A stretch of 64,000 nucleotides of DNA from an uncultured cyanobacterium. GTDB lineage: Bacteria > Cyanobacteriota > Cyanobacteriia > Cyanobacteriales > CAWUOF01. The stretch covers positions 4,346,943-4,410,942 of the forward strand of contig CAVUSO010000001.1 in assembly GCA_963744145.1 (NCBI GenBank), in the 5' to 3' direction. The notes beneath the pieces were generated by a model. It was not told the origin of the DNA. It made no database searches and was given only the letters and a program-made list of their open reading frames with translations. The position numbers and the translations under genes were made by a program. Of this stretch, positions 26,694-56,528 are shown in pieces. Every line of letters begins with the position of its first letter. The first letter of the stretch is position 1.

Positions 26694-28039
26694 GTAGGGG
26701 CAAAGCATTTCGGCGCAGAAATTATTGCCTTAACACCGAAAACTATGACCGAAATGCTTTGCCCTCAGCCATACCTGCATCCAACCGATCGACCAAATCA
26801 ACCCATATCTGCATTCAAGCGATCAACTAAATCAACCAATAGTTGGAAAATCGTCGCGGGAGCTGGCCTAATTATTTCCTCCTTAACAATTATCGCGGGG
26901 GCTGGGCGAAGCATTCCCCAATTAAATTTATCCATGACCTGATCAGTGATCGTGGGGAATGCTTCGCCCCTACGGCGATCGCCCTTCTTTTCCATCAACC
27001 TAAAACAGAATTTGAGCCGTCTTTGTAGGGGCAAAGCATTTCGGCGCAGAAATCATGACTTTAACCCCGAAAATTATGACCGAAATGCTTTGCCCTCAGC
27101 CAGGTCTGCATCCAACCGATCGACCAAATCAACCCATATCTGCATCCAACCGATCGACCAAATCAACCCATATCTGCATTCAAGCGATCGACCAAATCAA
27201 CCCATATCTGCATCCAATCGATCGACCAAATCAACCCATATCTGCATTCAAGCGATCAACTAAATCAACCAATAGTTGGAAAATCGTCGCGGGAGCTGGC
27301 CTAATTATTTCCTCCTTAACAATTATCGCGGGGGCTGGGCGAAGCATTCCCCAATTAAATTTATCCATGACCTGATTAGTGATCGTGGGGAATGCTTCGC
27401 CCCTACGGCGATCGCCCTTCTTTTCCATCAACCTAAAACAGAATTTGAGCCGTCTTTGTAGGGGCAAAGCATTTCGGCGAAAAAATCATGACTTTAACGC
27501 CGAAAATTATGACCGAAATGCTTTGCCCTCAGCCAGGTCTGCATCCAACCGATCGACCAAATCAACCCATATCTGCATCCAATCGATCGACCAAATCAAC
27601 CCATATCTGCATTCAAGCGATCAACTAAATCAACCAATAGTTGGAAAATCGTCGCGGGAGCTGGCCTAATTATTTCCTCCTTAACAATTATCGCGGGGGC
27701 TGGGCGAAGCATTCCCCAATTAAATTTATCCATGACCTGATCAGTGATCGTGGGGAATGCTTCGCCCCTACGGCGATCGCCCTTCTTTTCCATCAACCTA
27801 AAACAGAATTTGAGCCGTCTTTGTAGGGGCAAAGCATTTCGGCGCAGAAATCATGACTTTAACGCCGAAAATTATGACCGAAATGCTTTGCCCTCAGCCA
27901 GGTCTGCATCCAACCGATCGACCAAATCAACCCATATCTGCATCCAACCGATCGACCAAATCAACCCATATCTGCATCCAACCGATCGACCAAATCAACC
28001 CATATCTGCATCCAATCGATCGACCAAATCAACCAACAG
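26694..28039. repeat. nested repeat array: 4 higher-order units (331, 433, 365 and a partial 217 bp), each holding 2, 5, 3 and 4 copies of a 34-bp tandem repeat
   Basis: Each unit has three parts. Hairpin A is GGGGCAAAGCATTTCGGCG...CCGAAATGCTTTGCCC. The 34-mer is CTGCATCCAACCGATCGACCAAATCAACCCATAT repeated n times. Hairpin B is GGGCGAAGCATTCCCC-N34-GGGGAATGCTTCGCCC. Unit starts are 26694, 27025, 27458 and 27823. Confidence 0.9.
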
Positions 28040-28096
28040 TTTTAGAATTATAGCGTGGTATAATCAGGATAAATTCACTCGATCGAAGACAGAACT

Positions 28097-28411
28097 ATGA
28101 CAGATGAAGAGTTAAAAAAACTCGTAGAAAGTAATGCTCGTGCTATTCAAGCACTGACCGATACAGTTAATTCTTTTAGTCATCAAGTTTCCGGAAGAAT
28201 GGAACAGTTTGACCAAAGAATAGACCATTTGCTGCAATTAGCGGAGCAAGCACAAGCAGAACGAGAAGAACTCCGTCAAGCCACCATAGGAATTGCTAAC
28301 CTGCTTGCGGCTCTTGATCAAGATCGTCCTACAATTCTCAAGCGTTTAACATCGATCGAGACCAAAATAGACCAAATTTTGGAAAAAAATCAATTTGGCA
28401 ATAATGAATGA
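28097..28411 (+). CDS. hypothetical coiled-coil protein
   Basis: 104-aa ORF with a heptad-like sequence. Confidence 0.4.
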   Translation: MTDEELKKLVESNARAIQALTDTVNSFSHQVSGRMEQFDQRIDHLLQLAEQAQAEREELRQATIGIANLLAALDQDRPTILKRLTSIETKIDQILEKNQFGNNE

Positions 28412-31075: not shown

Positions 31076-31158
31076 AAAACTTTCTTAAAGGATTATTACT
31101 ATCTTAAGTAGATTCACATACATATTCAAGCATATTTAGTTAAGATTTGTTAAATTTC

Positions 31159-32484: not shown

Positions 32485-34539
32485 TTATTCACTCAAACTT
32501 TCTTGTAGCATCCGACCAGCCGCATCTAACAAGACCTCTTCTAAATAAGGTTTAGTAAAGTAACCACTTGCTCCTAATTCTATTGCCATTTGTCGATGTT
32601 TATCAGCACCCCGGGAAGTTAACATCGCGATCGGTAATTTACCTAATACCGGATCATTCTGAAGACGAGATAATAATTCTAACCCATCCATTCGAGGCAT
32701 TTCTATATCACAGAATACCAGATCACAATTTAGTCCTGAGCGCAGTTTTTCCCAAGCTTCTTGACCATTTCGAGCTTGTTCCACTCGATACCCAGCTTTA
32801 TTAAAAGTCATCGATAACATTTCCCGGACTGTAATAGAATCATCCACAACTAAAACAGTAGGATTAGTCGGATTCTCATCAATCATAGAAACTATCTGAT
32901 CTTGATTCCAACTCCAACGATCTTCACGACGAATCCGTCCTAGAGCTAAATCAATCAGTTCTAAAACATCTGCGATCGGCACAATTTGACCATCCCCCAT
33001 TACCGTAGCACCTACAATTCCCAAGGGTTTAGGTACTGGACCTTCAAGTTGTTTAATAACTATTTCTTTTTCTCCTAAAAACTGATCAACTTGAACCGCG
33101 AGCAAAGTTTCAGCATTGCGTAAAATCACGATCGATATTTTATCATCGTTATTGCTACTCCAATAACCGCGACCGAAAGGACGATGATAAGTCAGGAGTT
33201 CTTTCAGTGGTCGAAAAGGGAGTTCTCGATCGCGCCAAAAAATACAGGTTTTACCTTCAGAATTAACTTTAATCTGAGTTGGGGGAATCTTCATCATATC
33301 TTCTACCCCATCAATTGGAAAAGCAATCTGAGCTTTGTCACTGATACAATAAAGCACTTTAGAAATATTAAAGGTAAGAGGTAGTCGAATCGTAAAAGTA
33401 GTACCTTGACCAGGAGTAGAATCTGTATGAATTACCCCACGTAATTCATGCACATCTTCTCGGACTACATTCATCCCCATTCCACGACCAGAAATTAAAT
33501 CTACTTCATCATTGGTACTAAATTCTGGATAGAATAACAGCTCATAAATATCCAAACGAGACATAATATGTGCTTGTTCAGGTGTAATTAATTCCTGTTT
33601 AATTGCTTTTACTTTTACTCGTTCTAGATCAATACCCGCTCCATCATCAGTACAGGAAATTACAGTTTGGTTCCCTTGATAACCAGCGCGAATCGTAATC
33701 CGACCTTTAGGGGGTTTTCCTTGTTGCTTTCTAATCTCTGGTAATTCAATCCCATGCGCGATCGCATTATTAACTAAGTGAGTTAATGAAGCGGAAAGCT
33801 CTTCGAGGATCATCTTATCAATTAAGGTATCTTCACCTTCAATTTGCAATTCGATTTGTTTTCCCTTTCGCTCCGCAATTTCCTGACAACCGAGTTTTAA
33901 TTTACTCGAGATTTGGGAAAAAGGTTGCATTCGCGATCGGGTTAATCCTTCTTGGAGTTGGGTAGTTACTTGTCGGAGTTGTTTACTTACCTGATCAGAA
34001 CCATCTACTAAAAACTCAATATCAGCAGCAGATTCTCGCACTCTGACCATTAATTCAATAATTTCCTGAGATAAACTATGAAATGGTGTAAATCGATCCA
34101 TTTCTAACACATCCCATTGGTCAGATTGATGACTAACTTCTTTCTGACTCCAACGATTTTTTTCAGGTTGAGATATGAGGTGACGTCCGGTTTTGCGACT
34201 TGACAATAAGGAAGTTTCTAACAGCGATCGCTCATACAAATCTTGCATTCTTTGGGAAACATCACTGAGCTGACTGACCTGAATCAATAAATTATCTAAA
34301 AACTGTCTTAACCTTTCCTGATCCTGTTCTAAACTATTACGATTAACTACCAACTCCCCAACTAAGTTGCTCATGTTATCCAATTGTTTAATTGGCACTC
34401 TCATGATCTGGTCATTCAGCTTTTTCTTTTTCGGTGCTGGTAATAAACAGCGTCGATAGAGTTGATTTTTTAAGTTACCTTCATCAATCAAATTTTCCAG
34501 ATCATCCCATTGACTCTCATCAGTTTGGTTATTAGTCAT
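32485..34539 (-). CDS. Hpt-less CheA-like hybrid kinase (dimerisation, HATPase, CheW-like, REC)
   Basis: 684 aa, collinear with and highly similar to residues ~940-1632 of the upstream 1632-aa CheA. Motifs HLVNNAIAHGIE, DDGAGID and GRGMGMNVV, plus a C-terminal REC (VLVVDDSITVRE...DIEMPRMDG). There is no HSxKG Hpt motif. Confidence 0.8.
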   Translation of the reverse strand: MTNNQTDESQWDDLENLIDEGNLKNQLYRRCLLPAPKKKKLNDQIMRVPIKQLDNMSNLVGELVVNRNSLEQDQERLRQFLDNLLIQVSQLSDVSQRMQDLYERSLLETSLLSSRKTGRHLISQPEKNRWSQKEVSHQSDQWDVLEMDRFTPFHSLSQEIIELMVRVRESAADIEFLVDGSDQVSKQLRQVTTQLQEGLTRSRMQPFSQISSKLKLGCQEIAERKGKQIELQIEGEDTLIDKMILEELSASLTHLVNNAIAHGIELPEIRKQQGKPPKGRITIRAGYQGNQTVISCTDDGAGIDLERVKVKAIKQELITPEQAHIMSRLDIYELLFYPEFSTNDEVDLISGRGMGMNVVREDVHELRGVIHTDSTPGQGTTFTIRLPLTFNISKVLYCISDKAQIAFPIDGVEDMMKIPPTQIKVNSEGKTCIFWRDRELPFRPLKELLTYHRPFGRGYWSSNNDDKISIVILRNAETLLAVQVDQFLGEKEIVIKQLEGPVPKPLGIVGATVMGDGQIVPIADVLELIDLALGRIRREDRWSWNQDQIVSMIDENPTNPTVLVVDDSITVREMLSMTFNKAGYRVEQARNGQEAWEKLRSGLNCDLVFCDIEMPRMDGLELLSRLQNDPVLGKLPIAMLTSRGADKHRQMAIELGASGYFTKPYLEEVLLDAAGRMLQESLSE

Positions 34540-34650
34540 AGTTATGCAATCCCTGAAATCTCTGGGTTATGTAGATGATTATTTTGGAACAAAGGGATCA
34601 GATGTCAGGGAAATTACACCTTCAATCAGATCCCCCAGACCTGACACCGA

Positions 34651-37600
34651 TTAAGTTGCACTAGCACTACCTACTAATACTTCACCCTTAAGCATCCGAC
34701 TCGCTGCGTCTAATAAAGCTTCTTCTAAATAAGGTTTAGTAAAGTAGCCATTAGCTCCCATTTGAATTGCCATTTGTCGATGTTTGTCTGCACCACGGGA
34801 AGTTAACATCGCGATCGGTAATTCACTGAGTTGAGGATCTTTCTGGAGACGAGATAATAATTCCAATCCATCCATCCGAGGCATTTCAATATCGCAGAAT
34901 ACTATGTCACAAGGTAGTCCGGAGCGCAGTTTTTCCCAAGCTTCTTGACCATCACGCGCTTGTTCGACTCGATATCCAGCTTTATTAAATGTCATTGACA
35001 GTAGCTCACGCACGGTAATCGAATCATCGACAATTAATACTGTTGGTTCAGCTTTGTGATCTTCCGCGGCTTCGCTCTGCATTTGGATGTGATCTTGTTC
35101 CCACATCCGTCGATCTTCACGACGAATTCGTCCGAGAGCTAAATCAATTAATTCCAATACATCTGCGATCGGTACAATTCGACCATCCCCCATCACCGTA
35201 GCACCAGCAATTCCGACTGGTTTCGGTACGGGACCTTCAAGTTGTTTAATTACGATTTCTTGTTCCCCCATCGCTTGATCCACTTGGACCGCCAGAAAGG
35301 TGCCAGCACTTCGCAACACAATCACATCAATAGTCTCTTCATCATTGCTAGCGCCCCCATAAATACTACCCCGACCAATATAGCGATTATAAGCTAGTAG
35401 TTCTTTCAGTGGTTGGAACGGCATTTGTTGATCGCGCCAAGGAATACAAGGTTGATTTTCCGCATTCACCTTAATCCGTTCCTTGCTAATTTTGATGATA
35501 TCTTCTACCCCATCCATCGGGAAAGCAATCCGCGCTTTATCACTGATACAACATAGAGCTTTAGAAATACTTAGGGTTAAAGGAAGACGGATCGTAAACG
35601 TAGTACCTTTACCCATCGTCGAGTCAGTATTAATTACCCCACGAATCTTATTCACGTTATCTAAGACTACATTCATCCCCACCCCACGACCGGAAATAGA
35701 ATTTACCTCATCATTGGTACTAAATCCCGGATGGAAAAGAATGTCATATACATCTAAACGAGACATGGTTTTTGCTTGTTCGGGGGTAATTAGTCTCTTT
35801 TCCATAGCTTTAACTTTTACCCGCTCGATATCAATCCCAGCACCATCATCAGAAAATGCGATTACGGTTTGGTTACCTTGGTGGAAAGCTCGAATTGTAA
35901 TTCGACCTATAGGGGGTTTTCCTTTCGCAACTCGTGCTTCTGGGGGTTCAATCCCGTGAGCGATCGCATTATTCATTAAGTGAGTCAATGGATCGGTCAG
36001 TTTCTCCAGGATCATCTTATCAATTAAAGTATCTTTCCCTTCAATTCTTAACTCGGCTTGTTTCCCATTTTCCCCAGCTACTTTCCGACAACCCCGCTCT
36101 AACATATTCGAGATTTGCATAAATGGTTCCATCCGCGATCGGGTTAAACCTTCTTGGAGTTGAGTTGTTACCTGTCGGAGTTGTCGAGTTACTTGATCTG
36201 CTTCATCCACTAAAAATTCAATATCTGCTGCTGATTCCCGGACTCTGACCATTAATTCGATAATTTCTTGAGATAAACTATGAAATGGTGTAAACCGATC
36301 CATTTCTAGCACGTCCCAATCTGAACCGTGATTTCCTGCTGCTTCTTGATTACTATTACTTTTTTCTCCACGAAATGCAGGTCCACGGGGAGCTTTCCGA
36401 CTTGCTAATAGGGAAATTTCTAATAGCGATCGCTCATATAAATCTTGCATTCTTTGGGACACATCACTGAGCTGACTGACCTGAACCAGTAAGTTATCTA
36501 AAAATTGCCTTAAACGTTCCTGATCTTGTTCTAAACTATTGCGGTTGACTACTAACTCCCCAACTAAGTTGCTCATATTATCCAACTGTTTCACGGGGAC
36601 TTTCATAATCTGTTCATTGAACTGTTTGTTCGGACGTGCTTGAGCCGATCGCGGTCTTCCTTGTACTTTCGTTTCACCCCGTTCATCCAGTAATTTTTCC
36701 ATATCACCCCATTCATTCTGATCAGCTTTTGGTTTAGCTGTGGTGGTGATTACTGGTGTTGCTTGCTCAGTTTTCGGTTTAACTGTTTCTTTTGCTCTCG
36801 TAGTTTCTCGGTTGCTGGTGGTGGATTTTTCCACACCTAATAATTTTTCTAATTCAGCAAATATATTGCTGTCAACAGGTTGATTTGCTAACAGTGCTTC
36901 TAATTCGGCAAATTGTGCCCCATTTAATTCTTTTTCAGAATCAATAGTCAGATGGAGCGATTCGGAACTAACATCTACAGGTTGATCAATATCCAATTCG
37001 CTACTAATCAGATCATCTAAGGAAATCTCTGCTGTTTGCTCAGGTAAAACTAACTCATCCTGGTGGGGAAATTCCCATAAATCTGCTCCCATTTCTGTGG
37101 GAGTATCAGTTAACCAATTGTCTGGTAATTCACTGGTTTCTTGTCCAGCAAATAAATCGTCAATCTGATCAGCAAAATTCAGAGTTAGCTCCGGTTCGGA
37201 CTCATCACTTTCTTCCTGCGGTTCATCAAAATCAAAGAAGCTATCTGTCAAACTTTCATCAGCTCCCAAATCGACAGCAAATAGATCATCGACTGCTAGT
37301 TCGGATGATATTTCTGTACTATTTTCATTCTCAAACTCTATTAATTCCAAACTTGAGGGTGATTCACTTTCTAGCGATGTTTCTGGGAAAAAGGAAAAAT
37401 CTGCTTCCGGTTCTGGGGTGGGATTGGTTTGGGCTGAATCGGATATTTCCCAGCTAAATAAATCATTTAATTCTGATTTATCCTCGGTTTCTTCTGTTAA
37501 TTCCAACCAGCTTAAATCCTTACTTTCTTGCTCTTGAGTATCTTCTAACCAATTTTCTGAAGCATCTATTTGGTCAATTTCCAGAGCAATTTCATCTTGG

Positions 37601-39549
37601 TTATCTTCCGTTAAATCTAATGAACTTAGGGCAGATTTTTCTGATTTTTCCGGACCACTGATTTCCAACAGTTCACTAAAATCTTGATCATCATCATCCG
37701 GAATACTTTCAATCGCTTCATTTAGAGAATTATCTCCAAATAAATCATCTGTTTCCCAGGAATTTACTAATTCTTCATCAGTTGAATTAGCATTTATTTC
37801 TGGTTCATCTGTCCATAGACCTTGCCAATTATTTTCACCGTTTGCACTGTCCTGATTTTCTAGCTCTAATTGACCAAAGCTATCATTATTTGCTGTTACC
37901 TCATCAGCAAACAAAGGTTCCTCTTCTGCTAAATCAGCAAATAATTGATTTAAAGGAGCTGAGTCAATTACCGTGTTTAAATCCTCTGAATTACTCTCTA
38001 ATTCTGACCATAAAATATTTTCTTCTTCCTGGGAATTTTCCGGCTCTGTCTCGATATCTAAAAGTGATAAATCTCCGAAATCTAATAACTCCGACTGGGT
38101 GTCGGTGAGATTTTCTAAATTTAAGTTTGGCTGTTGTTCTTCTGATTCAAGCATAAAATCCTCGTCAAACAAACTGGTTAATTCATCACTGGTTAGTTCT
38201 GGAGATACAGCGGATTGATTTAAACTATTTTCATCAAATAATAAATCAGCAAACTCATGATTAGCATCAAATTCGATTCCATCTTTTAAATCTAATTGTT
38301 GAGCCGTTTCCACCCTACTTTCTTCGGTCGTTTGTCGGTGATCTAGTTCTTCTGTTTCACTCCCAAATAAACTACTTAACGCATTGAGAACATCCATTTC
38401 CACTTCCGGTACTGCTGGATGTTCGTGTCTTTGGTTGACCTGGCTTTTTTCTGACGGTTGACCTAGTAATTCCATCTCTTTTCCATTTGCTAGTTCTAAA
38501 TCTAAATTTATTTTATTTTCTTCATAATTGACAATTTCATTTCCAAATAGATCAAGGCTATCTGGTGCCAAAAAGTCCTGATTTGGGGATTCATTCATAA
38601 ATGTTAATGTAGATGACTCTTCGTTTGATGGCATAAATTCAAGTAAGTCCTCAAAATTTAGATCCTCTGCTTCCGGCTCCCTATTTATTTCTGGGGGAAC
38701 TAGTTCTTGTAGTTGGGAGCTTTCTGATATTTCTGTCCAGCGACCAGCTAACACTAACTCTTGAGCTTGTTTAATATCTTGGAACACTGCTACTGCGATC
38801 GTCCGGTAGGTTTTTTCTTGATTCCCGATCGCTTTTTTCACAGTTTCCATTAAGTTTACCCATTGAGGAATTTCAAATTGCTCCCCAAATTGGTTTAAAG
38901 TATCACATATTTCTTGTAAGTGTTCTCTAGTATCGGTATTATCTGTTTGTTTAAACAGTTGCAACATCTCTCGTAATGCTTGGGTGACATCACTGCGAAA
39001 GATCAATTGGAGTGCACTCTCTTCTCCATATTCCGTTATTCTTTTACTCAGGTTAGTTTCTGCAACTAACTGAGCTGGTTTGGTTGAGCTAGATTTTTCA
39101 TTTTTGGTCGATTTCTGAGTCGATGGGGTTTTGACCAACGAATGGAGATGACTGACTAGCTCTTGTAAAACTGGTTCTACTTCGGTCAGTTTTTGGTTAG
39201 CTAACTCTTCACTCAGACCAAACTGACTTGCTAGTTGATCTACTAATTCTTGCAGAGTATCAAAAACTTGTAAAAATAGAGATTCTAGTCTTTGGTCTAC
39301 TTTAACTGGTTCTTCTTTGAGGATGCGAAAACAATCTTCTAAACTATGAGAAATAGCTTGAATACTTTTAATTCCCAACATCGCGGCTCCACCTTTGACT
39401 GAGTGGGCCGCTCGAAACACCTCATTCGCCATTTCTGGCTCTTCTAAGATGCTTTGGAGGTTGAGTAGACCTTGTTCGATCGTATTGAGATGATCTTTTG
39501 CTTCGTCAATAAAATATTTAGTAATTCTATCTTGCTCATCCGGTAACAT
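34651..39549 (-). CDS. hmpE: hybrid CheA histidine kinase of the Hmp/PilL type
   Basis: N-terminal Hpt (FRAAHSVKGGAAMLG), a ~650-aa acidic low-complexity linker, then CheA dimerisation/HATPase/CheW-like/REC. Confidence 0.85.
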   Translation of the reverse strand: MLPDEQDRITKYFIDEAKDHLNTIEQGLLNLQSILEEPEMANEVFRAAHSVKGGAAMLGIKSIQAISHSLEDCFRILKEEPVKVDQRLESLFLQVFDTLQELVDQLASQFGLSEELANQKLTEVEPVLQELVSHLHSLVKTPSTQKSTKNEKSSSTKPAQLVAETNLSKRITEYGEESALQLIFRSDVTQALREMLQLFKQTDNTDTREHLQEICDTLNQFGEQFEIPQWVNLMETVKKAIGNQEKTYRTIAVAVFQDIKQAQELVLAGRWTEISESSQLQELVPPEINREPEAEDLNFEDLLEFMPSNEESSTLTFMNESPNQDFLAPDSLDLFGNEIVNYEENKINLDLELANGKEMELLGQPSEKSQVNQRHEHPAVPEVEMDVLNALSSLFGSETEELDHRQTTEESRVETAQQLDLKDGIEFDANHEFADLLFDENSLNQSAVSPELTSDELTSLFDEDFMLESEEQQPNLNLENLTDTQSELLDFGDLSLLDIETEPENSQEEENILWSELESNSEDLNTVIDSAPLNQLFADLAEEEPLFADEVTANNDSFGQLELENQDSANGENNWQGLWTDEPEINANSTDEELVNSWETDDLFGDNSLNEAIESIPDDDDQDFSELLEISGPEKSEKSALSSLDLTEDNQDEIALEIDQIDASENWLEDTQEQESKDLSWLELTEETEDKSELNDLFSWEISDSAQTNPTPEPEADFSFFPETSLESESPSSLELIEFENENSTEISSELAVDDLFAVDLGADESLTDSFFDFDEPQEESDESEPELTLNFADQIDDLFAGQETSELPDNWLTDTPTEMGADLWEFPHQDELVLPEQTAEISLDDLISSELDIDQPVDVSSESLHLTIDSEKELNGAQFAELEALLANQPVDSNIFAELEKLLGVEKSTTSNRETTRAKETVKPKTEQATPVITTTAKPKADQNEWGDMEKLLDERGETKVQGRPRSAQARPNKQFNEQIMKVPVKQLDNMSNLVGELVVNRNSLEQDQERLRQFLDNLLVQVSQLSDVSQRMQDLYERSLLEISLLASRKAPRGPAFRGEKSNSNQEAAGNHGSDWDVLEMDRFTPFHSLSQEIIELMVRVRESAADIEFLVDEADQVTRQLRQVTTQLQEGLTRSRMEPFMQISNMLERGCRKVAGENGKQAELRIEGKDTLIDKMILEKLTDPLTHLMNNAIAHGIEPPEARVAKGKPPIGRITIRAFHQGNQTVIAFSDDGAGIDIERVKVKAMEKRLITPEQAKTMSRLDVYDILFHPGFSTNDEVNSISGRGVGMNVVLDNVNKIRGVINTDSTMGKGTTFTIRLPLTLSISKALCCISDKARIAFPMDGVEDIIKISKERIKVNAENQPCIPWRDQQMPFQPLKELLAYNRYIGRGSIYGGASNDEETIDVIVLRSAGTFLAVQVDQAMGEQEIVIKQLEGPVPKPVGIAGATVMGDGRIVPIADVLELIDLALGRIRREDRRMWEQDHIQMQSEAAEDHKAEPTVLIVDDSITVRELLSMTFNKAGYRVEQARDGQEAWEKLRSGLPCDIVFCDIEMPRMDGLELLSRLQKDPQLSELPIAMLTSRGADKHRQMAIQMGANGYFTKPYLEEALLDAASRMLKGEVLVGSASAT

Positions 39550-39730: not shown

Positions 39731-42703
39731 TTATTGACGGTCAGCTATGTCCACCCGGAACCGTTCTACCGAAGTCAGTAAATCTCGCGCCACACCTACC
39801 AGGTTTTGTAAAGCACCAGACACCCGTTGTGCTTCTTGAGAAGTTTCTTGAGCTGTTAATTCTACAGCTTGCATTACCGAAGCAACTGCTCGTGAGGTTT
39901 CACTTTGCTCCACGGTATCAGCAGTAATCGATCGCACCAGCACGTCAATCCGATTTGATACTTTAATGATATCTTCCAGAGCGCGTTTGGCTTGTTCAGC
40001 CCGTTTGGTCCCTTCAATTACCTGCTGGGTCCCTTCTTCCATGGCCATCATTACTTGGCCAGTTTCACTTTGGATTTGCATGACTATTTGTTCGATTTCT
40101 TTTAAAGCTTTGGCGGAACGATCGGCCAATTGTCGAACTTCATCCGCAACCACTGCAAACCCCCGACCGGCTTCTCCAGCCCGAGCTGCTTCAATACTAG
40201 CATTCAGAGCGAGCAAGTTAGTCCGAGAAGCGATCGCGGCGATTAAAGCCACAATCTTGGCAATTTCTTGGGTCGATTCGGCTAACCGTTTAACTTTTCT
40301 AGTCGTTTCTGCTACTGTTTCTCGAATTTCTAAAATCCCAGCCACCGTGCGTTCAACTGCCTCACCCCCTTTAATCGCCGTTGAAGAAGCCGAACGAGCT
40401 ACTTCTTCCGTTTCCCGAGCATTATCAGCCACCCGTTGAATCAAGTCGGTCATCACCTGCACGGAATTGAGGGTAGCAGCTAATTCTTCTGCTTGTCGTA
40501 AAGCGTCTGAGGACAAACCGCGAGCAAAAGTTTCACTATCGGCGGCTCCTTTAGCTACTTGACGGGCAGCGGTTTTCACTTGTTGGACAATTTCTCGCAG
40601 GTTTTGAATGGTCAAGTTAAAGGAATCAGCTACAGCTCCTAAAACGTCTGCGGTCACTTCAGCTTGAACGGTCAAATCTCCTCTAGCTGCACCTTCTACG
40701 TCATCTAGGAGACGAATCACCTGACGTTGTAAGTCTTCTTTAGCTTGTTCTTGGTCCGCAGCTTTGCGTTGTAACTCGCTCATGGTGGTAAACATCACCC
40801 GAGACATATTGTTAAATTTCTGAGAGAGTTGACCGAATTCATCCTCCGCGTAAACGGTAGAATGGGCTTTGAGATCACCTTGAGATACGGCATCAAATTG
40901 GGCTTGCAAATCATCCGTCGTGCGTTTAATTTGTTTGGTAGTCATATATCCCAAACCTAGGCTCGTGCCAAAACTAGCGATCCCTGCTGCCAGAGCCATA
41001 ATGCCGCCAGTTTGGCGCAACTGTAAAATTATGTCTGCTTTGCCTTGTTGATAAGCATTACTAGCGGCAAACCAACTGACAAAACCAACACTGATTAATG
41101 AGATTACTCCAGTTGTCCCCGCCGAGATCATTTGTTTAGTGGTCAGCGGTGCATTTTCAAAAAAGGCAAAAAAACCTTGTTCCACAGTAGTTGCTGGTTC
41201 CGCATCCCCACTATCTAGGTGAGTAAAAGTCGGCAGTGGGGTACTTTCGCTACTCCCAGCAATACTAAATACTTCTTCATCACGAATGGCCGAGCGATCG
41301 CTAATATCCCCGAAATCCGATCCCCCTTGATAGACACTTTTGGTCGCACCAGTGGATAAACCAAAACCAGAGTGACTGTTACCCAAACTAGAACTTAGGT
41401 TTGAGCCACTTTGCATATCGCCAGATATATCGTACAAATCTACATCTTGGAGATTGCCGAGATCGTCAAATTCATCAAATTCGTTGTTTTCCAGAAATCC
41501 ACTATGGGCGGCATTACCTGAAACGGGAAATCCACTCGTGCTAGCATTACTACCAGTAGCGCCGCTCCCAAAGGCATCATCACTGAAACTAGCATCATCA
41601 AATTCATCTAAATCAAAACTATCTGTAGGATTAAATCCGTTTTGAGCTGAGGGAGCTACCAAAGTTAAGTCAGATTGATCAACCAGGTTTTGGGGGCGTG
41701 ATGGCTGATAAGTATTAGGATTTTGGCTTTTCGACCTAATTGCTTCTGTTGGTGCTTCTTCTAGTTCTTCTGCACCCATAAACAGAGTTGCATCTGCACT
41801 TTCTTGGTATTCATTCAGACTAAAATCAGAGTCTTCTAAATTGTCATAGTTTTCTGGTGGCAGATCCGGCTCGGGAGTAGCTGTCACGGGTTCATCTTGC
41901 CAGTCCATCGGGGCAAAGGATTCTTCATCAAACTCATCAATGGGGTTTGATAACAGATCATATTCCTCATCGGTTGAGGTGCTAAAGGGTGATGATTCTA
42001 CCTGGGCATGACCATTTCCTGTTGGTCGATTCACACTCGAGAAAGTAATATCTTCAGCTGCAAAAATCTGCTGAGTTTGCTCGTCATCCTGGGGCTGAAA
42101 TTGACCTGCGGCAAAAGGATCTTCAAAATGATCGGCGGAATCTGAATTGAGATCATATTCTTCTGTACTATCATGCTGATGGTCAAATGGGTTAGTAAAT
42201 GCCTGAGAGCCACTATCCTCTTGATGATTAGCCAAATTGGCGGTGCTAAACATTTCTGTTGGACCATCTAAATCCACTTCTCCCAGGTTAAAGTCACTAT
42301 TTGGGTTGTAATACTCTCCCTGGTCAGTCTCAGCTTGTGGATATAAGGAAATGTCTTGGTCATCCATCAGCGGTTCGCTATCATATTCTGATTGCATATA
42401 TGCTTCTGGATCGGCCAAGTCACCGTTCTGATATTGTTCAGCGTAGGCTAAACCGTTGTTGGCATAATCAACAAATTCTGGCTCGCCCGTCAGTTTTAGC
42501 ACAGTTTGATACTCACTGCTAGCCACATCAAATTGTTGTAGCCCATAGCAATAAATATGACCTCGCAATAAATGAATTGATGGGTCATTTGGGCTATCGG
42601 TGACTAACTGATCTACAATTTCTGCGGCTTCCTCATAATTTTGCTGGATATAAGCTGTTTCCGCCCGCCGATAGTCTTGTTCATAAGTTGTGCTTGATGC
42701 CAT
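39731..42703 (-). CDS. hmpD: methyl-accepting chemotaxis protein of the HmpD/PilJ type
   Basis: TPR-like N-terminus, an acidic disordered region, two TM segments, HAMP, and the MCP signalling domain ([28 protein letters not shown]). Confidence 0.85.
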
Positions 42704-42888: not shown

Positions 42889-43464
42889 TTATGCTCCCCA
42901 GCGGGCCGAACTAATAATCGCCGTTTGATCTAATAATCTAAGAAACCGGCCTTCTTTTTCGTCTAACAACCACTCACCTCGGAGGAATGGTTCCATACTA
43001 TCCGGGACATTGGTGGGTCTTTGGACTTGCTCGCTATCAAGCCAATCCATCCCCACAATCCGGTCCACGGCTAAACCTAATAATCTGTCTTGATCTTCGA
43101 CGGCAATGACCGGAATTTCGGTACGGTCTGTACTTAATGCCGCTGTATCGCCTAAAAATTGACCCAAATCGGCTACCCAGATGACTCGACCTCGGACATT
43201 TAGGGTGCCTAAGAGTAAGCCAGACACATTGGGAATTGGGGTAATTCGATCTGGTGCTGGCGAAATTACTTCGCGAATTCCTGTGGCCGGCAGGGCAAAT
43301 TCTGTGCCCGATGGGACATAAAACCGCAAGTGTAATTCACCTTCTGGGCTGTCCAATTCCTGGAATTCTGAGGCTAAATCTGGGATTTGGCCGGTGGGAA
43401 AATCTGGATTGCCTATCATTACCAGTAAACCTTTAACCTCTGAGAAGTTGTTTGACTGTGCCAA
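42889..43464 (-). CDS. hmpC: CheW-like coupling protein
   Basis: CheW fold sequence (LRFYVPSGTEFALPATGIREV...RGRVIWVADL). The start may be the internal Met at 43419, which would avoid the overlap with hmpB. Confidence 0.8.
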   Translation of the reverse strand: MAQSNNFSEVKGLLVMIGNPDFPTGQIPDLASEFQELDSPEGELHLRFYVPSGTEFALPATGIREVISPAPDRITPIPNVSGLLLGTLNVRGRVIWVADLGQFLGDTAALSTDRTEIPVIAVEDQDRLLGLAVDRIVGMDWLDSEQVQRPTNVPDSMEPFLRGEWLLDEKEGRFLRLLDQTAIISSARWGA

Positions 43465-43798
43465 CTAGCTCCGGGGGCTGGAAAGGTTTGGCAATATAAG
43501 CATCTGCCCCTTGCTTCATACCCCAATAGCGATCGAATTCTTCCCCTTTGGAAGAACACATGACCACTGGTACACCCTGGGTCTTAGGATCGGCTTTCAG
43601 TCGGCGACAGACTTCATAGCCGTTCATTCTCGGCATCACTATATCCAGAATCACTAAGTCAGGACAATCACCTTGGATTTGTTCTAAGGCTTCGACGCCA
43701 TCACTGGCTTCGGTGACTGTTAGCCCACAGCCACGGAGGAGGTTTGAGATCATCTCCCGTTGCGTCACACTGTCTTCCACCACTAGCACTCTATTCAT
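43433..43798 (-). CDS. hmpB: CheY-like single-domain response regulator
   Basis: 121 aa with VLVVEDS, DLVILDIVMPRMNG and KP motifs. Confidence 0.85.
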   Translation of the reverse strand: MNRVLVVEDSVTQREMISNLLRGCGLTVTEASDGVEALEQIQGDCPDLVILDIVMPRMNGYEVCRRLKADPKTQGVPVVMCSSKGEEFDRYWGMKQGADAYIAKPFQPPELVGTVKQLLRG

Positions 43799-44156: not shown

Positions 44157-45464
44157 TTAATCACTCAGATTTGTCTCTAATTTTGTTGCCAAGCTATCAT
44201 CATTGTCTGTTGCTGATAAAGGAGTGGGGGCTTTTCCTGGGCCAACATATTTTTCTACCAACATCAATAACTCATTTTCTCCAAATGGCTTAGTCAGGTA
44301 GTTCGTTGAGCCGACCATCCGGGCTTTTACCCGATCAATAAATCCATCTTTACCAGTGAGCATGATGATGGGTGTTTGTCGAAATGCAGTTGAGCGTCTG
44401 AGCATCGCACAAATTTCATAGCCATCAAGTTCTCGCATTGCGATATCACACAAAATTAAATCTGGCTTGAGCTGAAAAACTAAACTCAATGCTTTCAGTG
44501 GATTGCTCAATGCTGTCACTTCATAACCATGTTCTTTGAGAATATATTCAACAGTTTTGCCAATTGATCTGTCATCATCAATGCAAACAATTCTCGGAAT
44601 CTTTGTTTCTCTCCATAATCCAAAATCGCGTTTATTTGCTGCCGCTAATTCTGCCTCTGGGTAAAATAGTTGTACTAATCCAAGCTGGACAAAAGGATAA
44701 ATCGCACGCGCTACAGTTAAAATATCTCGGCTTAAATAGCGGGCCATCTGGCGGAGGGAAGTTTTACCATCAGCCCAATGTTTCAAGGTTTTAAAGGTAT
44801 TTTCTGGTAAAGCTGAACGCAACTGGACTGCATCTGAGATCACTGGACATTGGGTCGGGGACTGGATGTGAGGATGAAATTGTTTCCATTCTTGCACCTG
44901 GGTCATAATCTTGGCGACTAATGGGCCAATCTCTAAGGTAGTTAGTTGTGGTGCTAAAGGGGAACCGATTTCAAACACAAAGGTGCCTTGGTGCAGACTG
45001 AGTAAATCAAATAGGGTCTCATGGACCATGCTTTTGATGATGGTACGTCCTTGGGCTGGAGTAATTATATAATTCTCTAGTAGGGTCCAAAGGTAGCCAT
45101 ATTCTAGTGCATTGGTCGAAGCAATTGCTGGTTTTTCAATCTGATCCAGGGTGGCTTCAGCTTTGTACCGATGTAAATAATCGCGCAGACGCGATAAACT
45201 GTTACCCCCATCACCAGCATAAACAATTTGACCATTAAAAAAAAACACAAACCATGATTGTTCCTGAGGTCGAATTCGTGGTTCGCGGGGCAATCCTCGG
45301 ACAGAACTGCGGATCATCGTTTCCCGTAATGGTAAAGAATCACTACTTCCAACGATTCCTAAGTGCGAACTATAAGCTTCCACAAACAGTTCACCGGTTC
45401 GCTGACCTAATTCAATCAGTTGCAGGATGCTGCGGATATCGATTTCACTCAAATTTCCCTGCAT
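44157..45464 (-). CDS. hmpA: PatA-type response regulator (PATAN/DUF4388 + REC)
   Basis: N-terminal GNLSEIDIRSILQLIELGQRTGELFVE (DUF4388) and a C-terminal REC (IVCIDDD...DLILCDIAMRELDG). Confidence 0.8.
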   Translation of the reverse strand: MQGNLSEIDIRSILQLIELGQRTGELFVEAYSSHLGIVGSSDSLPLRETMIRSSVRGLPREPRIRPQEQSWFVFFFNGQIVYAGDGGNSLSRLRDYLHRYKAEATLDQIEKPAIASTNALEYGYLWTLLENYIITPAQGRTIIKSMVHETLFDLLSLHQGTFVFEIGSPLAPQLTTLEIGPLVAKIMTQVQEWKQFHPHIQSPTQCPVISDAVQLRSALPENTFKTLKHWADGKTSLRQMARYLSRDILTVARAIYPFVQLGLVQLFYPEAELAAANKRDFGLWRETKIPRIVCIDDDRSIGKTVEYILKEHGYEVTALSNPLKALSLVFQLKPDLILCDIAMRELDGYEICAMLRRSTAFRQTPIIMLTGKDGFIDRVKARMVGSTNYLTKPFGENELLMLVEKYVGPGKAPTPLSATDNDDSLATKLETNLSD

Positions 45465-46347: not shown

Positions 46348-48018
46348 GTGCTATATCTAGCGGAAGTACAAAAAAAAGCAAGTGGATTTTTGGGTAGCAG
46401 TGCGAAGGCCGAATTAAAGCTGCTAGCACTACAACGAAATGACCAAAGTTGGAGTGCTGTACCTGGAGAAGAACTGGTGGTAGCACCTGAGGAAGCTAAT
46501 AATTTAGGTAATGGGGCAATAGTATTAGTGGAACTCGGGAATAATAAGCAAGTACAGCGGATTGAGCAAAGCCGTCAGTTAGTAAATATTTTGCAAAATT
46601 TTTCCAAACAGCAAGAAAAAGTCAAAACTCAGGAAGAAGAAATTGAACAGTGGAAACAATCCCTGACTTATCAAAGTCAAGAACTCAATCGTCGTGAAAT
46701 GGAAATGGAAGCGGAGCGAGACCAGCTCGAAGAATTGAAAAAAGAAGTCGAAAGACTACCTGAACAACGTCAAGAAATTGATCATGCTCGGGATGAAGTG
46801 AATCGACTTCGGGAAGAGAGCGATCGCAAAAGTCAAGAACTAGAAGGTGCTTGGCAACAACTACGCAATGAAATGCAACGTTTAGAGCAACAACAAACCC
46901 AGTTACAGCAATCCTCAAGTCTTAATCAAGAACAATCTGGGCAGCTTCAGGAATTAATTAATCAGTTATTAGGTGCGATCGCACCTGGTGACTTGGTGAG
47001 AGAAGAATTAAATATCGTGTTTGAAATTCTGAATGCCCAACAAGGGATTATGGATCGGCACTGGCACGAATGGGAGCCAAAGCACGCTCAAGCTGAACAA
47101 ATGCAAAAAGAAGTAGATGAGCAAGCCCAAGTGATTCCCCAGCGTTGGCAAGAATGGTATCAAACTCAAGCATCTTTAGAGCAAGCTCGTTTAGAGTTGA
47201 AAGTCCAGCAAAATACGTTCCATCTGATGGAAGCAAGAGCGCAGAAATTAAGAGAGGAAATTGAAACTCAGAAAAGTTTACAGGTAGCGGTTTCTCAGCT
47301 AGCAAATGCCACGACTATTCATAGCAATAATGGTAATCATGGTGATGTGGAAGCTTTTGAGAAAATGCCGCTAGACCAGCTCCAGGGAAAAGTGCAAGAA
47401 CTGGAGCGGGAATGGGAAAATATGTTTAATTTTGTCCATGCTCAGGAAGAAGAATTGGCAGAATTAAAGAATGAACCTGAAAGTTACGAAATGCTCAATC
47501 GTACTCTAGAAGGTCAGCGTCGGAGTTTACGGGAAAAAGAAGAAATTCTAAATCAGTATCAATGTGTACTATGGAAACGCCAAGGTCGCAATTTTGGTGG
47601 AAATCAAAGTGTCAGTATTGATATTAGTCCAGTTTTAGGAGAAATCGAAAAACAGTTCCAGCACCAAACCGAGGAATTACAGAATTTAGAAAACCAAATT
47701 CAGCAGTTAAAACCAAGTCTTGAGGAAGAACAAAGAAAAATTGAACAACAAACTACAGAACAGGAAGCAAAGCGCAATGAATTAAAGGAATTAGAACAGA
47801 ATTGGCACAATCAAAAAGTAGCTGTAGGGGAAATTTGGAGTAAGTTGAATTTGTATCAAGATTTGTTACAACCAGCTCAAGATCGGGTAAATGAAATTAG
47901 ACAAAAATTGGAAGCAATGTCTGGAGTAGTACAGCAAGTGCAAGAGTCCGGTGGGACTCAACATCAGGCGATCGCTCAGATCCAAACAATAATTTCTAGT
48001 CTCACAAAAGCTGGCTGA
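46348..48018 (+). CDS. hmpF: HmpF-like coiled-coil regulator of type IV pilus motility
   Basis: Divergent from hmpA. The conserved N-terminus is MLYLAEVQKK...ELKLLALQRNDQSW, followed by ~450 aa of Q/E-rich coiled coil. GTG start. Confidence 0.7.
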   Translation: MLYLAEVQKKASGFLGSSAKAELKLLALQRNDQSWSAVPGEELVVAPEEANNLGNGAIVLVELGNNKQVQRIEQSRQLVNILQNFSKQQEKVKTQEEEIEQWKQSLTYQSQELNRREMEMEAERDQLEELKKEVERLPEQRQEIDHARDEVNRLREESDRKSQELEGAWQQLRNEMQRLEQQQTQLQQSSSLNQEQSGQLQELINQLLGAIAPGDLVREELNIVFEILNAQQGIMDRHWHEWEPKHAQAEQMQKEVDEQAQVIPQRWQEWYQTQASLEQARLELKVQQNTFHLMEARAQKLREEIETQKSLQVAVSQLANATTIHSNNGNHGDVEAFEKMPLDQLQGKVQELEREWENMFNFVHAQEEELAELKNEPESYEMLNRTLEGQRRSLREKEEILNQYQCVLWKRQGRNFGGNQSVSIDISPVLGEIEKQFQHQTEELQNLENQIQQLKPSLEEEQRKIEQQTTEQEAKRNELKELEQNWHNQKVAVGEIWSKLNLYQDLLQPAQDRVNEIRQKLEAMSGVVQQVQESGGTQHQAIAQIQTIISSLTKAG

Positions 48019-53402: not shown

Positions 53403-55232
53403 ATGACTCGCAAAGCCTTAGTCATCGGGATTAAAAATTATCCCAACTTCAGGGGAAGAGGACAAAGACAGGATCTGGAAAACCATCCTCTGGATGCAAA
53501 AGCGATCGCCGATTTTTTGAGAAAGTTCGGACGCTTTGAGGTGGAAGTTCTCCCCAAAACTGAGATTGATGGAGCTTATCAGGTTGATGAAAAAGGTATT
53601 GTAACAGCAAAGCAGCTAAAGAATGCCATTTACGATTTGTTTGTTGATCCCAAAGATGGTAAGATCCCCCAGACTGCATTACTATTTTTTGCTGGTCACG
53701 GTTTAGCGATCGAGGAATATCGCAAAACGATCGGCTATCTCTGTACAAGTGACACAAATAAAGACCAAGAAAAATGGGGTGTAGAGTTTCGCTGGTTAGC
53801 TGAACAACTTGGAAACAGTCAAGTATCAGAGCAAATTATCTGGTTAGATTGTTGTCACAGTGGACACTTGACTCAGCAAATTTTTGAGCAGACAAATCCT
53901 GGGAATCGAGATGATATAAAGCGCTCAATTATTGCGTCTTGTAGGGATTCAGAAATATCCCTAGGTGTAGATGGTCACGGGGTGCTGACACATCTTTTGA
54001 AAAAAGTGCTTCACCCTGAACAGTATGATGTTAGTTTTGCTATTAACAGTTCAGAAATTCAAGCAGCAGTAGAGCGAGAATTTCATGCTCATCCCAAATT
54101 TGGGACTTATCCTCAGCGTCCGTTATTTTTCCATTGTGGTAGACCAATTCATTTTTGGGAAGGTAGAGGGAAGCAAAGCGATCGCAAGTTTGAAATTTCT
54201 TCCGCAAATCAACCTTTTTGGTTAGCAGATAGCTTGCAGAATGATTCCCCATCTCTTAATAATTCCGAGTTATCTTGGTTTTGTTCTCTTCGAGAAGATC
54301 CAAATGTTTATGATCGGATTAGAAAAGCATACCAAGACTCTTTACCTCCCGATGCAGGATTGTGGGATTTAGAAGGAAATAATCTTCACCAGATTTTACA
54401 AGAGCTTAAAGTATTTAGAAGATTATTTGAATTTTTTAACCGTCTTAGTAAAGATGAAAATTTGCCTGAAGAAATTCGCGATCGCTTCAAAAACTGGGCT
54501 GAAAGGTTAGAGCCAAAAAAGTATCCAGATCCGATTAATTCTAGCGATCGCGAACTTGAATCCTATTTAATTGCTAAAATTGAACCTGATGAGGGATCTG
54601 ACAAATTTTTAGTAAATGCTTGGTTAATTATGGATAACTCAATCCCAGCAAATAACCTATTTAGATTTGAATCTCTGATTGATGGGAATGAACATCAACA
54701 GGGAATAGTTTGTCAATTTAATCAAATCCCAGAAAAATTAAATGAATTTCTAAAAAAATCTCGTAGAAATCTCCGAGGGAGAAAATATAACTTAACTATT
54801 GAGGTGTTTGTACCCAGTGATTTAATGTGTACAGAAGTCGATCGCTGGAAAATTATTGACCCAATCGATGATGAAGCTACTTTGGGTATTAGGTATCCGA
54901 TTCGATTGCGATCGGTAGAACGGTTACAGATTGATTATTTGGATGCGTATTTGTCTGATTGGTATAAACAGTGGGAGCGGGTAAAAAATATCTTCCATAA
55001 GGAACCAACTCCAGAATTATTTGAAACTATTGAGAAAATGGAAAATTTTAATTGGAAAATGTTGAAAAATAGTTTAATGGAAAAAATTGGTCTTAAGCTA
55101 ACTTGCGCTCATCCTCAAGGGAAAAGAAAGGAGTTATTTAAAGCTATTTTAACAGCAACCACTCCCATTGCTATTTGGACAAGATGTGATATTCCTAATG
55201 TAGATCAAGTAGCTGATACCAATTCACCATGA
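53403..55232 (+). CDS. caspase (peptidase C14) domain fused to a VMAP-like (vWA-MoxR associated protein) middle and C-terminal region
   Basis: KALVIGIKNY, catalytic His in LLFFAGHG, and Cys in IWLDCCHSGH. The C-terminal half (YNLTIEVFVPSDLMCTEVDRWKI...TPIAIWTRCD) resembles VMAP-C. It probably lost its extreme C-terminus to the repeat insertion at 55270. Confidence 0.65.
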   Translation: MTRKALVIGIKNYPNFRGRGQRQDLENHPLDAKAIADFLRKFGRFEVEVLPKTEIDGAYQVDEKGIVTAKQLKNAIYDLFVDPKDGKIPQTALLFFAGHGLAIEEYRKTIGYLCTSDTNKDQEKWGVEFRWLAEQLGNSQVSEQIIWLDCCHSGHLTQQIFEQTNPGNRDDIKRSIIASCRDSEISLGVDGHGVLTHLLKKVLHPEQYDVSFAINSSEIQAAVEREFHAHPKFGTYPQRPLFFHCGRPIHFWEGRGKQSDRKFEISSANQPFWLADSLQNDSPSLNNSELSWFCSLREDPNVYDRIRKAYQDSLPPDAGLWDLEGNNLHQILQELKVFRRLFEFFNRLSKDENLPEEIRDRFKNWAERLEPKKYPDPINSSDRELESYLIAKIEPDEGSDKFLVNAWLIMDNSIPANNLFRFESLIDGNEHQQGIVCQFNQIPEKLNEFLKKSRRNLRGRKYNLTIEVFVPSDLMCTEVDRWKIIDPIDDEATLGIRYPIRLRSVERLQIDYLDAYLSDWYKQWERVKNIFHKEPTPELFETIEKMENFNWKMLKNSLMEKIGLKLTCAHPQGKRKELFKAILTATTPIAIWTRCDIPNVDQVADTNSP

Positions 55233-55269
55233 AGATACATTGATGTATATTGATCTGTGGGTGAGGGTG

Positions 55270-55462
55270 GGTTTTGATGATTAGTAGGTAAATGTCAAAC
55301 ATCTCGGTGAACCCGGGCGGGTTTTTCTAATTAATTGGTAAATTTCAAAAATCTGGGCGAACCCGCCCCTACTACAGAAATCCGCAAATTGAGGATAAAA
55401 TTGGTAGGGGCAGGTTCACCAGTCAATTTTGCCACCAACAGATCACCATTATAAACCTGCCC
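55270..55462. repeat. cluster of GGGCGGGTT/AACCCGCCC and GTAGGGGCAGGTTCACC hairpin repeats inserted between two genes
   Basis: Two GGG(T/C)GGGTTT...GAACCCG(G/C)C units plus the 59-nt element (55404-55462) also found at 3530-3588. Confidence 0.7.
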
Positions 55463-55709
55463 TGACCTAACAGATCAACCTCAGATTAAGTGCAATTTCA
55501 TAGTTAATTGGTATGAACCCCATGATGATATTAATCGTCTTCCTGATCCCCCCAGTTAGCGTAAATTTACGGGTGCAGATGAGGAAATTATTACAGAAAT
55601 TGAACAACGCTGGGAAAAGTTTGGTGATAGTTTAGATCACAATAAAAGGGATGAGGAACGGGGTAAAAGTTTCCGTATCCATAGTGATCAGGATAATGAC
55701 CGAAATAGT

Positions 55710-56528
55710 GTGATTAATATGGTCAATGCTGCTTTATATTTAAGACGACCTTTATTAGTTACAGGAAAACCAGGGACAGGTAAAACCTCTTTAGCTTATG
55801 CGATCGCTTATGAATTAAAATTAGGGACTGTATTACCTTGGTATATTACAGCCCGTTCAACTTTACAAGAGGGATTATATCGCTATGATGCGATCGCGCG
55901 TCTGCAAGATGTGCAAATGGGTGATAAAAGTAAAGATATCGGTCGCTATATTACATTAGGTTCACTAGGAACAGCATTACTCCCTTCCCGTCGTCCTCGT
56001 GTATTATTGATTGATGAAGTAGACAAAAGTGATATTAATTTACCCAATGATTTACTCAACTTATTTGAGGAGGGAGAATTTAAAATCCCAGAATTAGTCC
56101 GGATTTCTAAAGACGTGAATCAGGTAGAAGTTCGTACTTATGATGGCATAGATGTCCCCATAAAAGACGGTAAAGTGCGTTGTCTGAATTTTCCATTTAT
56201 TATTTTGACAAGTAACGGTGAACGAGATTTTCCGCCAGCATTTCTCAGACGTTGTTTAAGGTTAAATATGCCTTATAATCCTGATGCAACAGCGTTACTG
56301 GAAATAGTAAAAGCCCATTTAGAGAAAGATAAATTAACTCAAGATCAGCCAAAAATCGAGAATTTAATCAATAAGTTTAAAGAATTACGAGAAGGAGGAG
56401 ATATTGCCACAGATCAACTACTGAATGCAATTTATATGGTGACTCGTGAGTTTAAACCTGAACCAGCAGAAGAAAAAGACCTAATTGAAGTGCTAATGAA
56501 ATACTTAAGCAGTGCGGAGGATCGATGA
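55710..56528 (+). CDS. MoxR-type AAA+ ATPase, N-terminally compromised
   Basis: Walker [14 protein letters not shown], Walker [12 protein letters not shown], and sensor region FLRRCLRL. The same frame continues upstream to 55509 ([26 protein letters not shown]...) with an in-frame TAG at 55557-55559 and no ATG. Confidence 0.7.

Follow-up and report, generated by a model that had tools for sequence, protein, structure and literature searches.

CheA kinase cores that lack the histidine phosphotransfer domain (Hpt, or P1) have so far been described in two guises only: as one half of a split kinase (PilL-C, CheA4) or as an isoform made from an alternative start (CheA-S). CheA-S still has all of P2 and a part of P1. 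In E. coli, CheA-L and CheA-S, the latter without the phospho-histidine, are produced from one locus and form both homo- and heterodimers (PMC2644175). The P1-less CheA4 of Rhodobacter sphaeroides (P3-P4-P5) is unable to autophosphorylate, and it phosphorylates P1 of CheA3, encoded in the same cluster (PMC3591291). In Synechocystis, the pilL-N and pilL-C products, Hik36 and Hik43, bind each other in a manner that needs the Hik43 N-terminal region including its dimerisation domain, and Hpt-less cores work with Hpt proteins from distant loci (PMC7656254); Hik36 and Hik43 mutants differ in pilus phenotype (PMC7690421, PMC7656254). In filamentous cyanobacteria, type IV pilus motility is governed by the hmp cluster (PMC12288463). 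Here we describe a 64,000-nucleotide stretch (the window) of contig CAVUSO010000001.1 from an uncultured member of the Cyanobacteriales, in which the full-length hybrid CheA gene of an hmp cluster, hmpE, is followed by a shorter paralog that encodes an Hpt-less kinase core, and we consider how this pair might have arisen and what the short protein might do.

The locus is a canonical hmp cluster of the tax3/pilG class, with hmpF followed by a divergent hmpA-B-C-D-E, and both genes of the pair lie on the reverse strand. The full-length hmpE (34651..39549) encodes a 1632-amino-acid (aa) hybrid CheA composed of Hpt, an acidic linker of ~800 aa, and the dimerisation (P3), kinase (P4), CheW-like (P5) and receiver (REC) domains, as assigned from its open reading frame (ORF), Pfam and orthology to the HmpE-type proteins of filamentous cyanobacteria. 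Its Hpt domain (39220..39549; PF01627, residues 11-108), with the phospho-histidine motif FRAAHSVKGG, is the sole Hpt in the window by tblastn. The short paralog (32485..34539) encodes, according to its ORF, translation and Pfam matches, a 684-aa Hpt-less P3-P4-P5-REC protein. A first-pass annotation, made from the letters of the window, had described this product as collinear with the last ~690 aa of the 1632-aa CheA. Both ORFs are found at these coordinates, and BLASTP aligns short residues 5-679 with long residues 941-1621 at 491/682 identities (72%) with 8 gap positions, a similarity far above chance. At the DNA level, blastn places the duplicated unit at 34691..36734 of the long gene (reverse strand): a main block of 1949 nt with 77.7% identity pairs 34428..32507 of the short gene with 36630..34691 of the long gene, and an extra 53-nt match takes the homology out to 34530 and 36734, respectively. 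The annotation's remark on long identical stretches holds in part; the exact shared run is 35 residues, KQLDNMSNLVGELVVNRNSLEQDQERLRQFLDNLL, and the 41-residue string quoted there is the sequence of the short protein, two residues of which are different in the long one (IMKVPVKQL...).

The two proteins share Pfam matches to H-kinase_dim, HATPase_c, CheW and Response_reg; a match to Hpt occurs in the long protein alone. In the short protein, P3 spans residues 42-185 (33985..34416; PF02895 at residues 44-100, E = 4.4e-08) and P4 residues 186-392 (33364..33984; PF02518, E = 4.6e-17), the latter delimited by Pfam, alignment and the E. coli CheA structures 8c5v/6s1k and alignable to CheA structures of both E. 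coli and T. maritima; P5 follows at residues 393-535 (32935..33363; PF01584 at residues 400-530, E = 1.4e-15) and the receiver, from Pfam and alignment, at residues 561-680 (32500..32859; PF00072, E = 4.4e-27). The P3, P4 and P5 domains that a CheA kinase should have are thus all present, and P1 is missing: PF01627 matches the long protein and has no match in the short one. As the first-pass annotation had it, the short paralog keeps the dimerisation, catalytic, CheW-like and receiver domains and is without both Hpt and acidic linker. Its N-terminus lies only ~40 residues ahead of P3, and within this segment is an acidic motif, ESQWDDLENLIDEG (residues 8-21, 34477..34518, located by alignment and modelled as a low-confidence helix), the counterpart of a family-wide [DE][DE]EFxDLExLLE motif found by alignment just before P3 in HmpE- and PilL-C-type proteins. 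Retention of this motif supports the ATG at 34539 as the start of the short gene. An AlphaFold2 model of the short protein, made from a 14-sequence alignment, has a mean predicted local distance difference test score (pLDDT) of 59.9; P4, P5 and receiver are modelled as the expected folds with pLDDT of about 70-87 (P4 ~80-87), and the P3 helices, modelled in the monomer, and the N-terminus are of low confidence.

From the stop of the long gene to the ATG of the short gene, inspection of the sequence gives a spacer of 111 nt (34540..34650, reverse strand). It opens with the TAA of the long gene, and two more in-frame TAA codons lie 30 and 42 nt before the short ATG. Searching the window by tblastn with the Hpt and linker of the long protein revealed no second Hpt-like sequence. 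A cryptic upstream Hpt exon, or a frameshift joining the short gene to another ORF, which the first-pass annotation had named as what would undo its reading, is ruled out by these in-frame stops and the Hpt search; the short gene is a separate gene and not a frameshifted fragment. The spacer contains no terminator-like site, no significant RNA structure and one weak promoter-like match. The 111-nt spacing, the shared strand and the absence of a terminator suggest co-expression with the hmp operon, and the short gene is probably co-transcribed with hmpE. A comparison of the spacer with the region 3' of the short gene, made to define the duplicated unit, gave residual homology no better than shuffled controls.

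How does this pair compare with the systems described before? The gene order and content of the cluster match those of the canonical hmp loci of Nostoc punctiforme (hmpA-F) and Geitlerinema sp. PCC 7407, and like theirs its hybrid CheA has an N-terminal Hpt, a long acidic linker and a C-terminal receiver; in those loci, however, one hmpE is the last gene. The PilL-N/PilL-C system of Synechocystis sp. PCC 6803 (Hik36/Hik43, tax3/pilG) and the PilL-C-type genes of other unicellular cyanobacteria are of the same family, with 57-60% identity in the core, and PilL-C shares with the short protein the Hpt-less P3-P4-P5-REC architecture, the need for a phosphorylation substrate in trans and the acidic motif before P3. 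Yet no full-length gene is present there and the two halves make one kinase, whereas here an extra core stands beside a complete HmpE; proteins of the PilL-C type also have a long acidic N-terminal region and two receivers, neither of which the short protein has, and in our tree the short protein is not a PilL-C ortholog but the sister of its own neighbour. With CheA-L/CheA-S the pair shares the combination, at one locus, of a full-length CheA and an N-terminally shortened form without the phospho-histidine. CheA-S, however, is translated from a start codon inside cheA itself and, apart from the missing N-terminal part, has the same sequence as CheA-L, whereas the short paralog is a separate ORF, 28% diverged, that starts ~40 residues before P3 and carries its own receiver. 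CheA4 is likewise a P1-less core with a P1-bearing partner in the same cluster, but its partner CheA3 is without P3 and P4, making the complementarity obligate, whereas the partner of the short paralog is a complete kinase; CheA4 moreover has no receiver and belongs to an unrelated lineage and to the flagellar, not the type IV pilus, pathway class. The short protein shows what defines a P1-less split core, P3-P4-P5 being kept and a P1 partner encoded separately, with the adjacent HmpE, itself complete, as the candidate partner. Its sequence, its position inside the HmpE clade of the tree and its context make it a member of the HmpE/PilL family, the context being an hmpF/PATAN-REC/CheY/CheW/methyl-accepting chemotaxis protein (MCP) cluster together with its C-terminal receiver, and by architecture it is grouped with the P1-less cores.

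Nearest among the orthologs of the long protein are P0122 and P0123, both encoded on metagenomic contigs and 76% identical to it in the C-terminal half; the short protein is 69% identical to these and 72% identical to the long protein (BLASTP). In a neighbour-joining tree built from 41 core regions, the four proteins form one clade with 100% bootstrap; inside it, short and long pair as sisters (66% bootstrap), with a branch of about double length for the short protein. Alignment also shows derived residues common to the pair, among them 'GC' in the P4 helix and FSTNDEV. Within the pair, the proportion of synonymous differences (pS) is 0.52; against P0122 it is 0.72 for the long copy and 0.67 for the short copy, with similar GC content at third codon positions (GC3) in all three. 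Because the value within the pair is below that of either copy against P0122, we place the duplication after the split from the P0122 lineage. It is not recent: the synonymous divergence (dS) between the copies is 0.84-0.89, compared with 0.37 between P0122 and P0123, and in no 40-codon window does pS fall below 0.35. The nucleotide comparison of the two genes that the first-pass annotation had proposed as a means of dating thus points to an old duplication, with dS about 0.85 and no low-dS patches. Recent gene conversion as the source of the long identical peptide runs is rejected, since pS is 0.55-0.64 in those very stretches, and for the same reason we attribute the runs to purifying selection. 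We also rejected a kinship with PilL-C, first suggested by Chroococcales PilL-C types at the top of a protein search, on the basis of the tree. That word-indexed search with the short protein missed the long protein (P0121), P0122 and P0123, all of which score higher in BLASTP than the matches it listed, so that its top list can mislead on nearest relatives. The short gene very probably derives from an old, lineage-restricted partial tandem duplication of the 3' ~2.05 kb of hmpE and has since been selectively maintained.

For the distribution of the pair we considered 85 related loci, 5 of them on contigs with P0122 or P0123 and 80 from a metagenome scan with the family alignment. A tblastn search with core and Hpt found exactly one core in each and a second kinase core in none of the 85; in 58 of them at least 3 kb of sequence follows the core, enough to show a second one. 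On the 5 contigs with P0122 or P0123, the gene after hmpE encodes a prolyl oligopeptidase. Geitlerinema sp. PCC 7407 (locus L120) has tilS, hmpF, hmpA-E and then unrelated genes, with a single hmpE. Because none of these loci, including those of the closest, 76%-identical relatives, has a second core, the tandem pair is, on this sampling, lineage-specific and not a conserved feature. The first-pass annotation had held that a full copy plus an extra C-half is not usual, and had proposed comparing synteny, with sharing of the pair by orthologous loci as grounds for withdrawing that view; the related loci do not carry the pair, and in Synechocystis and other unicellular forms the kinase is split (PMC7656254). 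Both proteins are singletons in a collection of 15 billion proteins. Among the best 150 matches in 1.84 billion cluster representatives, the only one of ~700-aa length was P0317 (Gloeocapsopsis, 701 aa); as a second short form it is rejected, its 90%-identity cluster mate being an Hpt-less core of 1001 aa whose gene comes directly after one for a separate Hpt protein, that is, a split. A scan of genome contigs with the short protein alone, with patterns too specific for the purpose, returned only unrelated receiver/CheA matches of other phyla.

Separation of Hpt and core is otherwise not rare in this family. Chroococcales matches (Crocosphaera, Gloeothece, Cyanothece and others) are proteins of 1000-1180 aa that combine an acidic N-terminal region with two receivers and are devoid of Hpt, and in Gloeothece the Hpt-less PilL-C-type gene lies apart from any chemotaxis cluster. 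On a Gloeocapsopsis-like metagenome contig (L119:84-4063), a 268-aa Hpt gene is followed, after 168 nt, by a gene for a 1001-aa Hpt-less P3-P4-P5-REC protein, an adjacent split that stands midway between the fused gene of filamentous forms and the dispersed split of Synechocystis. The HmpE/PilL family thus tolerates Hpt-core separation, given how common Hpt-less cores are and given the Synechocystis split, and this tolerance fits with the tethering of the HmpE Hpt by a disordered acidic linker of ~800 residues. We also note a 1214-aa HmpE-like protein (L079:8288-11932) that has no Hpt by Pfam and none in the 10 kb upstream, which may be another independent Hpt loss or split.

The short gene has changed considerably, and in a constrained manner. 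The pairwise ratio of nonsynonymous to synonymous divergence (dN/dS) between the copies is 0.21-0.23, the proportion of nonsynonymous differences (pN) is 0.02-0.05 in conserved blocks, and the 684-codon ORF is still open at dS about 0.85; by these measures the short gene is under purifying selection. With P0122 as reference, the short copy has 89 replacements of its own and the long copy 35 (binomial p = 1.3e-6), so that the short copy evolves, as estimated from these counts, about 2.5 times faster than the full-length gene. By domain, the unique changes of short versus long number 15 versus 2 in the receiver, 29 versus 11 in P4, 12 versus 3 in P3 and 18 versus 13 in P5; the asymmetry is strongest in receiver, P4 and P3 and weakest in P5. 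Among 39 other family members, 252 alignment columns are conserved in at least 95% of the sequences; the short copy alone departs from 16 of these columns and the long copy alone from 1. None of these 16 changes hits the N box (H254/N257/N258), the G1 box (D298-D299-G300-x-G302) or the G2 box (G351-R-G353-x-G355), all of which lie in invariant columns, or the receiver residues D566, D567, D611, S642 and K663, which are kept. The F-box glycine is replaced in the short protein (FYPEFST), and D591N and P604N in the receiver are unique to it. In the two P3 helices, identity between the copies reaches 90-97%. A copy that is old, selected and fast-evolving, with 16 near-invariant positions replaced, is unlikely to serve as a simple redundant dose of the kinase core.

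Let us then consider what the short protein might do. We lean, if only slightly, towards the explanation that a lineage-restricted duplication has supplied the Hmp system with a trans-acting extra kinase core; whether, by analogy with the systems introduced at the outset, this core phosphorylates the Hpt of full-length HmpE in trans we consider about evenly balanced. In such a scenario, the short protein would join the HmpD/HmpC receptor array via P5 and would pair as a homodimer or, via the near-identical P3 helices, with HmpE as a heterodimer. The short P4 would then phosphorylate in trans the single Hpt of full-length HmpE, tethered by its flexible linker, and phosphate would pass on to HmpA/HmpB and to both receiver domains. 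The net effect would be a shifted ratio of kinase core to Hpt to receiver, and hence a shifted gain, of type IV pilus motility control. Heterodimerisation, trans-phosphorylation and a phosphate-sink role had all been suggested in the first-pass annotation, and we find each plausible because of the 90-97% identity of the P3 helices and the precedents of CheA-L/CheA-S (PMC2644175), CheA4-CheA3 (PMC3591291) and Hik36-Hik43 (PMC7656254); on the sequences of these helices, formation of a short-long heterodimer is itself plausible. More tentatively, and as something we would call possible rather than probable, the short paralog might be a dedicated regulatory subunit that forms an asymmetric heterodimer with HmpE in the Hmp array, tuning its gain or adding a second phosphate-sink channel. 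Such a heterodimer would hold two kinase domains, one Hpt and two non-identical receivers.

Several points weigh against a trans-acting kinase core of this origin. At the protein level, the node that makes short and long sisters has only 66% bootstrap, and the short gene is carried by one genome only. The 16 replacements at near-invariant positions include 5 in the receiver. At the start of P4, an RxPRxVRD helix is conserved in Thermotoga and, by alignment, from E. coli (SRYPRLVRD) to almost all cyanobacterial homologs; it is altered in the whole clade, reading MLERGCRK in the long protein (region 35993-36016) and KLERGVRV in P0122, and the short copy (KLKLGCQE, residues 212-219, 33883-33906) has in addition lost both remaining arginines (R216L, R219Q). 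In view of these lost arginines and the near-invariant replacements, the kinase activity of the short copy, or its coupling, may be altered and not preserved. The expression, interactions and phosphotransfer of the short protein are matters that we infer from its gene and its relatives, and another Hpt protein or receptor partner could be encoded elsewhere in the genome, beyond the window.

The same features lend themselves to a different account, which we hold to be somewhat unlikely, in which the short protein would act as a negative modulator or as a phosphate sink: it would form heterodimers or occupy the array without productive output, or its diverged receiver would drain the HmpE Hpt, damping or reshaping the signal. 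The rate asymmetry is strongest where this account would have it, in the receiver (15 versus 2) and P4 (29 versus 11); R216L and R219Q in P4 and D591N and P604N in the receiver point the same way, the intact phospho-acceptor residues suggest that the short receiver is still able to take phosphate, and a heterodimer would have one Hpt in place of two. Yet all the ATP-binding boxes are under selection, which a pure sink or blocker would not need, dN/dS is as low in P4 as in the rest of the gene, and the full 684-codon core has been kept where a receiver alone would suffice for a pure sink.

We regard as improbable, though less so than the explanations taken up below, that the short core has been subfunctionalised and now works with a different receptor/CheW pair, or with a stand-alone Hpt protein whose gene lies somewhere else in the 7.6-Mb genome, its adjacency to hmpE being a historical remnant. 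Fast evolution in all domains of the short protein would agree with this, as would the use of Hpt proteins from distant loci by the Hpt-less cores of Synechocystis (PMC7656254), for which the orphan PilL-C-type gene of Gloeothece suggests something similar; our inspection was confined to 64 kb of the genome. The 111-nt same-strand spacing without a terminator, however, suggests co-expression with the hmp operon, P5, the domain for receptor/CheW coupling, has almost no rate asymmetry (18 versus 13), and in the window no Hpt, MCP or CheW occurs beyond those of the hmp cluster itself.

That the short gene is a decaying, non-functional relic of the duplication is very improbable. Its evolution faster than that of the parent, the replacements at conserved positions and its presence in one genome only are what a relic would show, but the ORF is intact at a dS of about 0.85, dN/dS is about 0.22 overall with pN as low as 0.02-0.05 in conserved blocks, all catalytic motifs are kept and GC3 is close to that of the parent gene. 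An artefact of assembly or annotation, for instance through the collapse of strain variants or a wrongly joined contig, was considered solely because a single genome shows this arrangement; nothing was found in its favour, and it has next to no likelihood. The copies differ at 22% of nucleotides over their whole length, far above what strains vary by, public collections place the two proteins on one and the same contig of 7,634,710 bp, and the junction is clean with an ordinary spacer.

Irrespective of the details of the mechanism, the short paralog is a lineage-specific variation on the already known split or shortened CheA kinases. What is new here is a complete hybrid CheA beside a diverged, selected copy of its Hpt-less core, in an operon for pilus polarity and motility of filamentous cyanobacteria, and the partial tandem duplication documents one evolutionary route to split or accessory kinase cores. 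If the short core does act in trans on the Hpt of its neighbour, the pair would offer a genetic handle on the Hpt as a shared, tethered substrate within an array, and on the role of the C-terminal receivers in hybrid CheAs. If it is instead a regulatory subunit, it would be a natural, gene-encoded counterpart of CheA-L/CheA-S and would allow direct tests of the effects of Hpt stoichiometry and trans-phosphorylation on type IV pilus chemosensory output. Being confined to one genome and within known principles, the wider impact of the finding is modest.

Upstream of hmpE on the same strand, and assigned by Pfam, are an hmpD-like MCP gene (39731..42703; HAMP and MCPsignal domains; at the same position in loci L034 and L120), an hmpC-like CheW gene (42889..43464), an hmpB-like CheY gene (43433..43798) and an hmpA-like gene for a PATAN (DUF4388/PatA_N) and receiver response regulator (44157..45464). 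The divergent hmpF (46348..48018, forward strand) encodes a protein that aligns from end to end, at 59% identity, with the PF28019 (HmpF) protein of L034. As listed, the CheW ORF begins at a TTG, is 191 aa long and shares 32 nt with the end of the CheY gene, and its true start probably lies further downstream, since the orthologs are of 176 aa. Just downstream of the short gene lies tilS in convergent orientation (31147-32142, forward strand). It borders the hmp cluster also in Geitlerinema sp. PCC 7407 (L120:1-456), but at the opposite end, by hmpF, which may be a trace of rearrangement around the cluster.

A few features elsewhere in the window may be mentioned. Rfam identifies one tRNA and nothing else, and there are no tandem repeats. 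A 191-aa ORF (26077-26652, reverse strand) has a weak match to IS200-type Y1 transposases (E = 7e-4, under the Pfam cut-off) and is followed by a run of short ~100-aa ORFs with no function assigned (26946..28411). At 50298-51689 (reverse strand) lies an unusual fusion of a solute-binding-protein-like region, Thiaminase-1 and a C-terminal MVL mannan-binding lectin module. The region 53403-58797 is likely a vWA-MoxR-associated conflict or defence-type module, with a Peptidase_C14 (caspase-like), VMAP-M1 and VMAP-C protein (53403..55232), an AAA/MoxR-like ATPase (55710..56528) and a Macro and VWA protein (56689..58797).

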